A stretch of 64,000 nucleotides of DNA. It comes from an uncultured archaeon. Lineage in GTDB: Archaea > Asgardarchaeota > Lokiarchaeia > Sigyniarchaeales > SOKP01. Numbering within the stretch: position 1 is the first letter of the stretch; the number at the start of each line of letters is the position of its first letter. Below, in pieces: positions 38,661 to 42,584 of this stretch. Location of the stretch: NCBI GenBank assembly GCA_964632315.1, contig CAZWEM010000004.1, forward strand, positions 32,001 to 96,000, given 5' to 3'. A program made the translations under genes and the position numbers. A model generated the notes under the pieces. It was not told the DNA's origin. It was given only the letters and a program-made list of their open reading frames with translations, and ran no database searches.

Positions 38661-40577
38661 ATGTATTCCCAAAAACCTTCAAGTAGGCAAATTCCCGGAA
38701 TAATCTCTTACATGGATTTATTTTCAACCCAAAAATTGGCTTATTCTATCTTCTTTACTACTCCGGGATTAATTGCTTTACTATCAATGATGCTAAATGC
38801 AATCTTTACTGGGATATGGAATTTTATTTACCTTTTTGTAACATTTTCTTCATTTTTAACCATAACTGGATTGGGAGCAATATTAGCTATTTATTATTAC
38901 TCAAAAAAGGCTCCTATTTTAGGTAGACCTCCAAAAGGTTGGGCTTTACAGATGAATGCATTTATCACGGGAATAATGGGGATATCGCTCTTAATTGGAC
39001 AAATTTTAACTATAGTTCTTCGATTAACCACGTTCCAGGATGCCTTGTTCATGTTAGGGACTGTAATTGCCTATATTATAGCATACGTAATATATTTTTC
39101 TTTTACTACCGTTGGTACTTACGGGACATTGATACTTTCACTAATCCAACCAATCACAGGAATCTTTCTCTATGGCTTTCTTACAGCTCAAATTTCAATC
39201 TTATTCTTTATAAGAGCTGTCATTTTTTTCTGCTCATGCGCGTTTATATTCGCAATACCCTATGCTCGGAGTATGGCAAGAGTAAGTAATATCTACCGAG
39301 AACTCACAGGTATCGGAGGATACCCATTTATAAGAGCTTTTGTCCTTTCAATGATGACCGATGGTAATGATGATCTTGTTGAGGAATTTTTTGATAAAAT
39401 AGGAATTGAGTCTGAAGTAAAAATCCAATATATTTTTATTAGATCTAAAAAGAATAATAAACTAAAAAGCATGTTTATTGTCCCAAATGTTCATTTTGGA
39501 CCGTTTAAGACATGTGGATCATCAGATCTACCAGCTCACATCTATCATAATTTTTTAGATATACCTGGAACAACAGTTTATCACACTACAAATGATCACT
39601 CCCAAAATCTAACCACTCAACGAGAGGTAAATAAAATTATTACTCAAATACAAGAGGATGTTAAAGATATAGAAAACAATCCTAATGTTATTTGGATAGC
39701 AGAAATTAACACTTTGATTCGTAAAATGTCAAATTCAGCTAAAGTAATTGGTACTAAAATAGGGGATATACCAATAATCTATTTAACACGACATCCCCTT
39801 CCATCAGATGATATACAATATGAGATTGGAGAGACAATAAGACAAGATGCCAAATCAAAGGGCTTTAGTGATGTGATTATAATAGATTCTCATAATTCGA
39901 TAATAGATGACGAGCACTTAATCAGAATGGGATCATTGGAGTCGAAGGATCTAATCAAAGTAGCAAGTAACTTTTTTAAAGCATTAAATAACGAAGAAGA
40001 AGTCAGCCAAAATCCAGTTCTATATGGTGTAGCAAAAGATCCTTTGGTGGAATTTTCAGAAAAGGATGGAATTGGCCCAGGAGGCTTGGTTGTTCATCTT
40101 TTTAAAAATGCTATCACTGGTCAGAAGACAGCAATGATTCATTTTGATGCAAATAATGCTTTTGTCGATATCAGATCTTATATCTTAAATACTCTGCAAA
40201 ATAGGGGAATTGAAAGGGGGGAAATAACCACTAGTGATGCTCATATAGTTGCCAGAAAATTTACTAAGCGAGGTTATTCTCCGATTGGAGAGAAAATAAA
40301 ATTAGACTACATTTTGAATAAACTTGATATATTATTAGCCGAAGCTGAAAGAAACTTAGAACCCGTAGATTTCACATATCGTGATTCGATAGTCAAAAAT
40401 GTTAGGATTTGGGGAGATCCTAAATATTTTGATGTTATAATGCGAACTTTGCAGGAATGCATTCGAATATCTCAACGTTTGCTGACGTTTGGTTTAATCG
40501 CACCAACTTTGATATCCTTAATTATTTTGATTTTCTTTTATAATGTTGAACTCCCGGATATTTTCAACCTCTTTTAA
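38661..40577 (+). CDS. DUF2070-family archaeal membrane protein
   Basis: N-terminal TMs, then PNVHFGPF..GSSDLP, H..DHSQN, DSHN, DANN, TSDAH, and a C-terminal TM. Confidence 0.85.
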   Translation: MYSQKPSSRQIPGIISYMDLFSTQKLAYSIFFTTPGLIALLSMMLNAIFTGIWNFIYLFVTFSSFLTITGLGAILAIYYYSKKAPILGRPPKGWALQMNAFITGIMGISLLIGQILTIVLRLTTFQDALFMLGTVIAYIIAYVIYFSFTTVGTYGTLILSLIQPITGIFLYGFLTAQISILFFIRAVIFFCSCAFIFAIPYARSMARVSNIYRELTGIGGYPFIRAFVLSMMTDGNDDLVEEFFDKIGIESEVKIQYIFIRSKKNNKLKSMFIVPNVHFGPFKTCGSSDLPAHIYHNFLDIPGTTVYHTTNDHSQNLTTQREVNKIITQIQEDVKDIENNPNVIWIAEINTLIRKMSNSAKVIGTKIGDIPIIYLTRHPLPSDDIQYEIGETIRQDAKSKGFSDVIIIDSHNSIIDDEHLIRMGSLESKDLIKVASNFFKALNNEEEVSQNPVLYGVAKDPLVEFSEKDGIGPGGLVVHLFKNAITGQKTAMIHFDANNAFVDIRSYILNTLQNRGIERGEITTSDAHIVARKFTKRGYSPIGEKIKLDYILNKLDILLAEAERNLEPVDFTYRDSIVKNVRIWGDPKYFDVIMRTLQECIRISQRLLTFGLIAPTLISLIILIFFYNVELPDIFNLF

Positions 40578-40678
40578 TCTCAATAAATATGATCTACATA
40601 ATACGACGATATTATGGAGATTCATATAATAATCTGAACCTATTTTTTATATAAATTCTTTTCAAAACGGTCAAATAC

Positions 40679-41212
40679 ATGCTTAGATCGGAATTAGACA
40701 GACTCTGTAAAGTTAGCTTGATCGGCCAACCTGCCGTAGGAAAAACAACCATGTTGAAACTTCTTTCACAAAATGTAATTGATCGAATTTACCTTCCAAC
40801 ACATGGTTTGGATTTAAAAACTGTTAAGTTTGACAAATACATACTGAAGATATGGGACTTTGGTGGTCAAGGGGCATATTTCAAGTGTTCTCGTGATCAT
40901 CTATTGGGTTCTGACTTGCTTTTTGTAGTAACTGATTCATCACCCAGAAATGTATTAAATTCGAGGGAATTGATTAATTACGCAACACATTTCATAGGTA
41001 AAGATTGCCCCATAGTTGCAATTGCTAATAAGCAAGATTTGGTTAAGAAAGATGGGCGGATGACTCCTGATAGGGTTGAAGATTTATTACAAGTCAAAAC
41101 TATTGGACTTACTGCTATTGATCCAGAAGAGAGAATGAGGTTAGTCGAGATAATTAGAAAAGAATTGAACCATATAGCAATTAGGAGGAGACTTAAAGAA
41201 GTTGAACTTTAA
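40679..41212 (+). CDS. Small GTPase, Arf-like (Asgard type)
   Basis: G1 GQPAVGKTT, G2 YLPTHG, G3 IWDFGGQ, G4 ANKQD, G5-like TAID. Confidence 0.92.
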   Translation: MLRSELDRLCKVSLIGQPAVGKTTMLKLLSQNVIDRIYLPTHGLDLKTVKFDKYILKIWDFGGQGAYFKCSRDHLLGSDLLFVVTDSSPRNVLNSRELINYATHFIGKDCPIVAIANKQDLVKKDGRMTPDRVEDLLQVKTIGLTAIDPEERMRLVEIIRKELNHIAIRRRLKEVEL

Positions 41213-41756
41213 TGAAAATGAAATCTTGAGTGCTGCACTCATAGGCTTCGATATGATAGATGGCCCATTCTTAAAATGGAAAAAACCTTTTACTCAAGCT
41301 CAAGATATAATTGATTTAAATGACTTTGCAATGAATTTTTATTTAGCATTTAGAGGAGGAAATGCTGGTAAAAAGCCACGTGCGATTCTATATGACGATT
41401 TCTATATTGTTGCATTTCCTAAGGATTTAGAGTTATGTTGCTTGTTCATGAAACCACAGGGGATAGAAAACAATATCAAGCAATTAAATAAAATAGCATA
41501 TCGTATTATTGATGAAATGGAAGTGGATGATGCTAAAGAAATTGATGATAGTAATTCTTCAGATGAGGAATTTGAAGAAATAGAACGTTTGATTTTAAAT
41601 TTACTTAATGAAACTGAAATGTCCACCCCAGAATTAAGAAGATATTTCAAATTGAGCAATGCTGAAATTTGGAAGTTAATGTCTAATCTCGAAAATAATG
41701 AAAAAGTCAAAAGAACCGATAAGAAAGGACGAGCAGTTTATTGGACTGCAAATTAA
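41202..41756 (+). CDS. Longin/uDENN-like N-terminal domain + acidic linker + C-terminal winged helix
   Basis: N-terminal AALIGFDMIDGPFL (FD..GP hairpin); acidic linker DDAKEIDDSNSSDEEFEE; wHTH ILNLL..EMSTPELRRYF...IWKLMSNLE..EKVKR...GRAVYW. Confidence 0.65.
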   Translation: MNFNENEILSAALIGFDMIDGPFLKWKKPFTQAQDIIDLNDFAMNFYLAFRGGNAGKKPRAILYDDFYIVAFPKDLELCCLFMKPQGIENNIKQLNKIAYRIIDEMEVDDAKEIDDSNSSDEEFEEIERLILNLLNETEMSTPELRRYFKLSNAEIWKLMSNLENNEKVKRTDKKGRAVYWTAN

Positions 41757-41774
41757 ATAATTTAATCCTATTTT

Positions 41775-42584
41775 TTAACGTCTTCTATGGTCCCAATCCT
41801 TTTCTTTTGTGAACAATCTTGAAAACATGATATAACAAATATCTGGAAGGCTTTTATCTTCATTATGAATCGTGATAAACCTTAGAACGTGATTTATCAA
41901 GAAAATGGCTATAAATTCGGCGTGATAGCTGCTCATTTTATTTAAATTCTTTCCTGAAAAATCAATATCGAGCCCACTTTCTTTATTCCATATAATTTCA
42001 ACAAAGAATTCGGGGAAGAATTCTCTTTTAATCCTCCACCCTTCAGTAGTGATCCAAACTTTACCTCCGATAAAATTCGATAATTCATCTTTATCATCTT
42101 CCTTGAGAAATTTAAAAGGTTCATCCCTTTGTACTAAGACTTTTTCCATTAATTCTGTTTTTTTGTTATACTCTTTCTCAAAAGGTTCTTCTCCTTTAAT
42201 CAACCTTTCGATAAGATCAAAGATAATTCCAATAAATGTAGCGCTGTCTTCTCCCGGAACCCAAGTAGCATGTTTACCTGAAAAGTAAAATTTAAATTCC
42301 GCTTCCACCCCATCGCCAAATTCATCTCCAAAGTAAGAATATGCCATATGTATGTTGACATCAGGAAACATTTCGATAGTGATCGTCCAATCTTCATTAA
42401 ATCCAATAGTTCCTAACTTGCCTCCTAAATATGACTTCACTAACTGCTTCAATTCTCCCATATCTATCTTAGTAAATAGTGAAAATTTCGCATTACTGGT
42501 ATCCTCAAGCTCTTTTTCATGAGGTCCTCTCACGCCAGTAGCATCAATTTGGCCAATAGTCCAATAATTTATTCCTTCTTTCAT
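41775..42584 (-). CDS. Uncharacterised protein with two tandem DUF3786-like domains
   Basis: Repeats WTITIEMFPDVNIHM...FYFSG and WRIKREFFPEFFVEI...IDFSG. Confidence 0.55.
   Translation of the reverse strand: MKEGINYWTIGQIDATGVRGPHEKELEDTSNAKFSLFTKIDMGELKQLVKSYLGGKLGTIGFNEDWTITIEMFPDVNIHMAYSYFGDEFGDGVEAEFKFYFSGKHATWVPGEDSATFIGIIFDLIERLIKGEEPFEKEYNKKTELMEKVLVQRDEPFKFLKEDDKDELSNFIGGKVWITTEGWRIKREFFPEFFVEIIWNKESGLDIDFSGKNLNKMSSYHAEFIAIFLINHVLRFITIHNEDKSLPDICYIMFSRLFTKEKDWDHRRR

Follow-up and report, generated by a model that had tools for sequence, protein, structure and literature searches.

A two-gene operon, coding for an Arf-like small GTPase and for a single-chain partner in which a longin-type domain is joined to a winged helix-turn-helix (wHTH), is found in a stretch of 64,000 nucleotides (nt), called here the window, from an uncultured archaeon of the Lokiarchaeia. 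The source genome is that of an Asgard archaeon (Promethearchaeota), 4.45 Mb in 119 contigs, and the DNA of the window is AT-rich, with about 31-33% G+C. The two genes stay side by side in nearly all of the loci compared, and their promoter region carries an element that recurs upstream of ftsZ1 and ftsZ2. The best reading of these observations, to which somewhat less than an even chance is given, is that the pair forms a GTPase-switched DNA-binding protein tied to a cell-division regulon. The features of the two genes are as follows.

40679 to 41212, forward strand: Arf-like small GTPase gene, 177 residues, ATG start, motifs G1 to G5 intact.
41183 to 41188, forward strand: Shine-Dalgarno-like AGGAGG, within the GTPase gene, 13 nt 5' of the partner TTG.
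41202 to 41756, forward strand: partner gene, 184 residues, TTG start, predicted to code for a longin-type domain, an acidic linker and a wHTH.
41223 to 41519, forward strand: predicted longin-type core of the partner (residues 8-106), with the order β-β-α-β-β-β-α, a GP hairpin at residues 17-22 and K74 at the β4-β5 turn.
41520 to 41561, forward strand: acidic linker of low model confidence (residues 107-120), with a predicted local distance difference test (pLDDT) below 50 at residues 106-119 and with length and sequence variable among homologues.
41562 to 41753, forward strand: predicted wHTH of ArsR/MarR-like type (residues 121-184), pLDDT 81-93.

Both open reading frames (ORFs) lie on the forward strand and share 11 nt, from 41202 to 41212, as had been described in an earlier note made on this DNA from its letters alone. 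The long form of the partner, with its TTG start, and its translational coupling to the GTPase are read from the sequences as real, since the AGGAGG lies ahead of this start, the homologues of the partner (515) line up from residue 1 of the 184-residue form, and 76 of 79 loci keep the stop/start overlap of the pair. The start codon of the partner is ATG (47), TTG (30) or GTG (2) in 80 related loci, and the start is placed, with respect to the GTPase stop, at -11 nt in 28 loci, at -4 in 41, at -14 in three and at -1 in four. The database gene call for the partner seems to use the internal ATG at 41253, which gives a protein of 167 residues (P0006). A contig of 204 nt from an RNA library, identical in sequence, spans the gene junction (41054-41257) and two more reach 41224; such contigs are no proof of a transcript, DNA being possibly present in these libraries. 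DNA nearly identical to positions 40300-42000 of the window is also present in metagenomes that several studies obtained from salt-marsh and marsh sediment.

The conservation of the pair, which the earlier note had proposed to check by synteny, was borne out. The GTPase gene is directly upstream of the partner gene in 79 of the 80 loci of related species, the exception being a contig end, and adjoins it in all 19 distant loci, with identities falling to 30-35% and with other classes represented. The pairing is thus kept in 98 of 99 informative loci, an adjacency far beyond chance. In a phylum-wide search of 400 genomes, the partner was found in 122 of the 134 genomes of the family of the window, in 17 of the 19 genomes from elsewhere in its order, including three closed ones, and in all seven genomes from elsewhere in its class; beyond the class it is sporadic, and there the N-terminal domain alone matches. 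No other neighbour is common to the distant loci. For two short relatives consisting of a solo N-terminal domain (L100 and L101), the 1.4 kb upstream contains no GTPase.

The first gene product is, by its motifs and relatives, an Arf-like small GTPase. G1 reads GQPAVGKT (residues 16-23), G2 is T41, G3 is WDFGGQ (residues 59-64), G4 is NKQD (residues 117-120) and G5 is TAI (residues 145-147), and all five are conserved in a family alignment of 35 sequences; the intact G1 to G4 announced in the earlier note are therefore all present, with G5 in addition. The best Pfam family is Arf (PF00025), whose cut-off of 22.3 bits is exceeded (55.9 bits, E 4.8e-15). Among solved structures, Arl3, Arl2 and Arf1 are closest (E 3.6e-13 to 1e-9), the solved chains 8oul and 8oun matching less well (E 3e-8) than eukaryotic Arl3. 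More than 300 homologues were collected, every one from Asgard archaea, whose GTPases include ArfR, ArfL and Rag groups (Vargova et al., bioRxiv 10.1101/2024.02.28.582541). The N-terminal amphipathic membrane-binding helix of the Arf type is doubtful here, because merely ten residues (MLRSELDRLC) precede the first strand. At two distant loci (L088 and L089) the catalytic Gln of DxxGQ in the cognate GTPase is replaced by His (FDLAGH and WDLAGH, respectively).

The partner opens with MNFNENEILSAALIGFDMIDGPFL, and its N-terminal 118 residues are covered by no Pfam or NCBIfam family when the window protein is scanned. A profile search of PDB sequences with this domain gave no match, and HMMER, run exhaustively over 1.84 billion representatives, returned only 29 clusters (at 50% identity), all of the partner's own family, with no bridge from the domain to other longins. 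A first AlphaFold2 (AF2) run with 30 close homologues gave an unusable N-terminal domain (pLDDT 45-60), while an alignment of 54 sequences, with distant homologues gathered by whole-genome searches, gave a model with pLDDT 84 and a predicted template-modelling score (pTM) of 0.69. The modelled elements are β1 (8-17), β2 (21-29), α1 (39-51), β3 (61-63), β4 (68-74), β5 (77-83) and α2 (from 89); there is no N-terminal helix, residue 8 beginning the first strand, and the model ends in a single long helix (89-117) running on into the acidic linker.

In the Foldseek, exhaustive VIA, second-look VIA and ESM-Atlas shape searches, the top rows are all longin or Roadblock. The structural matches comprise COPI and AP longins, TRAPP, GATOR1, C9orf72-SMCR8, DENND11, LAMTORs, MglB (including MglB bound to MglA) and Asgard Roadblocks. 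The Z scores to the COPI, AP, TRAPP and GATOR1 longins are 7-8.4 and are equalled by Roadblock, LAMTOR and MglB, values below 8 being middling according to the tool's own note. A search of the ESM Atlas by features reached a best score of 0.78, and one listed cluster, of which 19% of the members carry NPR2, is to be taken as a lead only. Membership of the domain in the longin/Roadblock superfamily is well supported at the level of the model, because the list of structural matches is uniform; the sub-type rests on topology. It is here called longin-type, since the modelled domain begins with a strand and since the alignments begin at residues 1-8 of longin chains and at residues 10-24, past the first helix, of Roadblock chains. 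A Roadblock/LC7 identity of the MglB type was considered and rejected, there being no Robl_LC7 match in Pfam and no helix before the first strand at residue 8.

Most of what the earlier note had claimed for the structure of this protein agrees with these models. The longin fold, whose failure it had named as grounds for refutation, is supported by the AF2 topology and by the longin and Roadblock matches, and the helix-strand-strand-strand-helix character that it saw after the hairpin corresponds broadly to the modelled α1, β3, β4, β5 and α2. The acidic linker is recovered as a low-confidence acidic stretch from about residue 107, ahead of the wHTH. The F[DH]xxxGP hairpin with which the domain was said to open is present as well: F-D-x-x-x-G-P is the best conserved feature of the partner family, with G21-P22 at the start of β2, and D17, G21 and P22 belong, with Y47, F50, G53 and P59, to the residues that are invariant in all 54 partner sequences. 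According to a 2025 study, the GP motif is specific to the catalytic, GTPase-facing pocket that the longins of FLCN, NPRL2, SMCR8 and C9orf72 have, and it has been noted in some Asgard longins as well (PMC12290439).

Membership in the class of GTPase-activating protein (GAP) longins formed by FLCN, NPRL2 and SMCR8, proposed in the earlier note as a proto-GATOR1, did not hold. The residue at the β4-β5 turn is K74 in the window protein; of 53 sequences compared at this position, 24 have K, 13 have R and 16 have some other residue, N, E, H, V and D among them, and a neighbouring family has RG there. R51 and R60 of the partner are likewise unconserved. The arginine finger of FLCN-type proteins presumably sits at the β4-β5 loop, a placement for which the D-x-x-A-R-G motif of the paralogues described below also speaks. 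Pfam Folliculin (PF11704) and NPR2 (PF06218) gave no match up to E 1 with the window protein and ten distant homologues, one distant homologue matched DENND11 at E 0.016, and no second longin subunit was found, only the two genes being conserved in the neighbourhood. The GAP class was thus rejected on the unconserved arginine finger (K74), on the lack of a second longin subunit or of a DENN domain, and on the lack of a Pfam match; the partner is not filed as an FLCN/NPRL2-type GAP because the finger is unconserved and because two FLCN-type longin paralogues of the same genome have no profile similarity to it, no similarity being found by hhalign of the partner-family alignment against either.

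These paralogues are of interest in their own right. The first (L102; G000:C54:14067-17240, ORF 1267-2679) is a fusion of 470 residues that joins a GP-hairpin longin carrying D-E-N-A-R-G (Pfam Folliculin, 23.1 bits) to an Arf/Rag-like GTPase, with a C-terminal region that is likely Roadblock. The second (L103; G000:C6:14928-18095) has, in ORF 1300-1950 of the forward strand, an FLCN-type longin of 216 residues with an HTLGP hairpin and the DSSARGGKQLYAII motif and, divergently adjacent to it in ORF 3-1100 of the reverse strand, a protein of 366 residues with a divergent Arf-like GTPase domain. The occurrence of a longin-GTPase-Roadblock fusion in the same genome suggests that longin-GTPase contact is a recurrent theme. 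A phmmer search of the L103 paralogue against PDB, meant to place the arginine of FLCN, gave no match, and a PF06218 search of the genome itself gave nothing and is uninformative, its controls being silent too.

The partner's C-terminal region has a different character. The best Foldseek matches of the modelled winged helix are ZitR/AdcR, SmtB, HlyU, SqrR and CzrA, and it superposes on HlyU, SqrR and CzrA with a root-mean-square deviation of 1.1-1.9 Å over 58-59 residues (Foldseek E about 1e-3 to 1e-2). The model thus places the C-terminus in a prokaryotic DNA-binding wHTH type; the C-terminal winged helix expected in the earlier note stands, and its likeness to those of NPRL2 and NPRL3 does not, the domain resembling ArsR/MarR proteins instead. 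Orthologues at class level pass the Pfam cut-offs for HTH_DeoR (27.6-31.3 against 21), HTH_5 (23.7-24.9 against 22) and HTH_11.

In distant relatives this module is replaced. At L089 and L097-L099, from other classes, the N-terminal domain follows the same GTPase and the C-terminus is a module of about 70 residues, helix-hairpin-helix-like (HhH-like), with the motif IRGLGPKR; in L088 and P0265 a tail of about ten arginines takes the place of the wHTH, the N-terminal domain and the GTPase being kept. The HhH assignment is weak, because it rests on the GLGPK motif and on poor Pfam scores (IMS_HHH, E 0.067; Pol X, E 1.1). The wHTH, HhH-like and poly-Arg C-termini would all be nucleic-acid or polyanion binders by type, which favours a DNA-directed role of the C-terminus and hints that specificity for a sequence may be dispensable.

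A second line of evidence comes from the spacer of 101 nt ahead of the GTPase gene, in which the following features are found.

40596 to 40627, forward strand: conserved 32-nt element, about 70-74 nt 5' of the GTPase ATG, present in about 60 loci of the family.
40597 to 40616, forward strand: imperfect dyad forming the left 20 nt of the element, CATAATACGACGATATTATG.
40645 to 40656, forward strand: TTTTATATAAAT, which resembles a TATA box and lies about 28 nt 5' of the GTPase ATG, as read from the sequence.

Relatives carry a conserved TTTAAtAAATTCT block at the position of the TATA-like box, which is probably the core promoter, the mRNA being then leaderless or short-leadered. The full 32-nt element occurs once in the 4.45-Mb genome (39.7 bits), the runner-up, at 13.7 bits, being at chance level. 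Simple regular-expression forms of the dyad show no genome-wide enrichment (nine found, seven to eight expected), and the distinction between ftsZ promoters and controls is made only by a weight matrix of the left 20 nt; the element's right half, which fails to separate them, serves as an internal negative control. With this matrix, 26 of 29 ftsZ1 upstream regions exceed the score that marks the 99th percentile in a control set of 872 upstream regions, and the dyad itself is found upstream of ftsZ1 in 21 of the 29 loci. Sites of at least 12.5 bits occur at 3.35 per kb upstream of ftsZ1, against 0.019 per kb elsewhere in the same loci. In 17 of 20 genomes the region before ftsZ2 has the dyad between -79 and -90, directly against a TATA-like box, and in the same test of ftsZ upstream regions a closed genome of the same order has a site of 24.1 bits at -85.

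Moreover, 12 of the 19 distant operons, among them one from a genome with 53% G+C and loci of the HhH type, have a dyad of at least 12 bits at about -50 to -110, mostly at -75 to -90, whereas none was found in seven ftsZ upstream regions from five genomes that lack the partner gene. The enrichment before ftsZ1 and ftsZ2, together with this absence, indicates at the sequence level that the operon has a cis-element in common with both ftsZ genes. The best-scoring dyad of the genome is the one in the operon's own promoter. Other strong dyads precede genes for a GHMP kinase (G000:C15:33430), small ORFs (one of 115 residues, C18:17485), an RHH protein (C38:43223), a Xer-type integrase (C56:6926) and an Ldh_2 gene, which form no coherent set. 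Neither the dyad common to the ftsZ promoters nor the C-terminal swap in distant relatives had been foreseen in the first reading of this DNA.

Several further observations concern the ftsZ genes. In L167-L170 and L174, from other classes, the gene immediately before ftsZ is small, ends in ...AIRIAVRDLLKNELWE and resembles an RHH gene (cdrS-like), and the dyad is absent. In a distant genome of closed quality, ftsZ lies about 8 kb from the GTPase-partner pair (G307:C5:307882-308808 and 316647-316994). The assembly of the window has one ftsZ only (C29:25263-26417), most genomes of the family having two, and the second may be unassembled. Finally, the ftsZ1 matches of G261, G258, G240 and G269, from the same genus, show one in-frame stop, which is probably an alignment overrun of the true end.

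In the preferred reading, the Arf-like GTPase would cycle between its GTP and GDP forms within a self-contained, translationally coupled two-gene switch, for which the longin-type domain of the partner would be the docking platform. To our knowledge, longin and Roadblock domains are GTPase docking platforms in every characterised case, and the partner may work like one. The ArsR/MarR-like winged helix would bind DNA, and the nucleotide state of the GTPase would gate this binding, possibly by displacing the acidic linker. The likeliest targets would be the operon's dyad, bound in autoregulation, and the counterparts of this dyad ahead of ftsZ1 and ftsZ2. A strongest site at the own promoter is the usual signature of autoregulation, and this, with the repressor type of the winged helix, would speak for the partner as the reader of the dyad. 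The complete chain, in which the longin-wHTH protein itself reads the dyad according to the GTP or GDP state of the GTPase and so gates both ftsZ genes and its own operon, is considered unlikely. If true, it would amount to a prokaryotic G-protein-to-DNA pathway in Lokiarchaeia, built on the GP-longin platform later used by the nutrient-signalling GAPs FLCN, GATOR1 and C9orf72.

Several points weigh against a GTPase-switched DNA-binding protein. The wHTH of the window protein itself is under all Pfam and NCBIfam cut-offs (HTH_27, 13.6 against 22.2; SdpR, 21 against 100). The HTH-type DUF742 of the actinobacterial conservons acts as an exchange factor for guanine nucleotides (GEF) and not as a DNA binder (PMC11343762). 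The swapping of C-terminal modules among relatives suggests generic polyanion binding, not sequence-specific binding. Finally, loci with an HhH-like C-terminus (L097-L099) and loci in which the recognition helix of the wHTH differs still have the dyad, which fits another reader, e.g. an RHH protein with the dyad upstream. A complex prediction for the GTPase, residues 1-118 of the partner, GTP and Mg scored 0.13 (mark 0.32) and counts neither way.

The alternative that survives best, less probable than the preferred reading and still to be reckoned with, is that of a pure regulator module, in which the longin-type domain, probably dimeric, would act on the adjacent GTPase as its GAP or GEF, the winged helix would be a protein-protein or second catalytic module, and the output would pass through other effectors of the GTPase. 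The platforms of MglB, FLCN, GATOR1 and C9orf72-SMCR8 do act as GAPs or GEFs (PMC8213707), and in the conservons MfpD is a GAP and MfpC/DUF742 a GEF, modules that would here be fused in one chain. The conserved GP hairpin and the Arg or Lys found at the β4-β5 turn in 37 of 53 sequences would speak for such a module; against it, that position, which would be the arginine finger, holds Lys in the window protein, other sequences have N, E, H, V or D there, and Pfam matches to DUF742, Folliculin or NPR2 are lacking. Furthermore, the nearest structures of the winged helix are DNA-bound repressors, and its replacement by an HhH-like module or by poly-Arg fits nucleic-acid binding better than it fits a conserved catalytic module.

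A second alternative, which is rather improbable, is a GTPase-controlled tether to the nucleoid or to a surface in cell division. Here the C-terminus would bind DNA or a polyanion (membrane) non-specifically, with a spatial logic like that of MglA/MglB or SRβ/SRX, and the dyad would be read by another factor that co-regulates the operon with ftsZ1 and ftsZ2. The interchangeable C-terminal modules (wHTH, HhH-like, poly-Arg), the conservation of the dyad whatever the C-terminal type and the cis-element common to the operon and both ftsZ promoters are all consistent with it. Tandem ATATTAC/T repeats with a spacing of about 11 nt lie ahead of ftsZ1; tandem repeats at such spacing are typical of RHH-type readers, and these would suit one. 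Against the tether stand the winged helix, of a sequence-specific repressor type, the position of the strongest dyad of the genome at the operon's own promoter and the probable lack, as read from the family alignment, of a membrane-targeting helix on the GTPase.

Finally, it is very improbable that the adjacency is merely historical, an orphan Arf-like GTPase lying beside an ordinary small transcription factor with a ligand-sensing N-terminal domain: the solo relatives L100 and L101 without a nearby GTPase and the lack of any direct sign of contact between the two proteins would agree with it, but in 98 of 99 informative loci the pair stays together, stop and start overlapping, as the other neighbours change, and the predicted fold of the N-terminal domain is a canonical small-GTPase platform.

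As regards these neighbours, a DUF2070 gene, a convergent gene for 269 residues and an RsmB/F methyltransferase gene are kept near the pair only inside the family of the window. The first (38661-40577, forward strand) codes for a membrane protein of 638 residues (Pfam 3.5e-93) and ends 101 nt upstream of the GTPase gene; it stands next to the pair, sometimes with an extra gene between, and is absent at the distant loci. The convergent gene (41775-42584, reverse strand) has no Pfam family and is found, at 50-74% identity, directly downstream in nearly all loci of the family.

The interest of the pair lies in its definition. Asgard genomes encode dozens of small GTPases and of longin and Roadblock proteins, and in MK-D1 the GTPase genes are generally not in operons with longin or Roadblock partners, so that cognate pairs are hard to predict (structural survey, PMC10933270). 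The pair of the window is an exception, being operon-encoded, coupled and near-universal in its family and order, with a partner invisible to Pfam. It thus offers a testable native partner for an Asgard small GTPase and a defined case in which to ask how a GP-type longin handles an Arf-like GTPase without a conserved arginine finger. The possible direct DNA output would be, for a small GTPase, not an established mechanism. The cis-element that the operon has in common with ftsZ1 and ftsZ2 is a link to cell division and, even if it reflects mere co-regulation, would assign a cellular process to an Asgard Arf-like GTPase.

Modules made of a GTPase and a Roadblock or longin protein are already known in MglA/MglB, in the conservons and in the eukaryotic longin GAPs; in the literature, no account was found of an Arf-like GTPase whose partner joins a longin-type platform to a DNA-binding wHTH. 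The C9orf72-SMCR8, FLCN-FNIP and GATOR1 (NPRL2-NPRL3) complexes share with the pair of the window an Arf- or Rag-type GTPase and a longin with the GP hairpin between β1 and β2, and the structural likeness of the GATOR1 and C9orf72-SMCR8 longins to the N-terminal domain of the partner reaches Z 6.1-7.7. In contrast to these eukaryotic systems, the partner is a single protein of 184 residues with no second longin nearby and no DENN domain; it has K74 at an unconserved finger position and a wHTH of prokaryotic type, and it is encoded in a prokaryotic operon. The paralogues L102 and L103 resemble it in the GP hairpin and in their physical or genetic linkage to an Arf/Rag-like GTPase, whereas they match Pfam Folliculin and carry D-x-x-A-R-G, a motif that is absent from the partner, which has the wHTH instead.

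The operons of MglA-MglB and of other GTPases with Roadblock proteins are likewise made of two genes, a GTPase and a platform of the longin/Roadblock superfamily (MglB, Z 7.4-8.0), but the GTPase of the window is Arf-like, its platform is without the Roadblock N-terminal helix, and a domain of DNA-binding type is fused to it. The actinobacterial conservons (Cvn/Mfp) link the same three types of module, GTPase, Roadblock/longin and HTH (PMC11343762, PMC13343842), in genes for a histidine kinase, a Roadblock protein, a DUF742-HTH protein and a Ras-like GTPase. The operon was not identified as a conservon, there being no histidine kinase neighbour and no Pfam match to DUF742 or Robl_LC7. Unlike the conservons, the system of the window has platform and HTH in one chain, a GTPase of the Arf type and an Asgard lineage.

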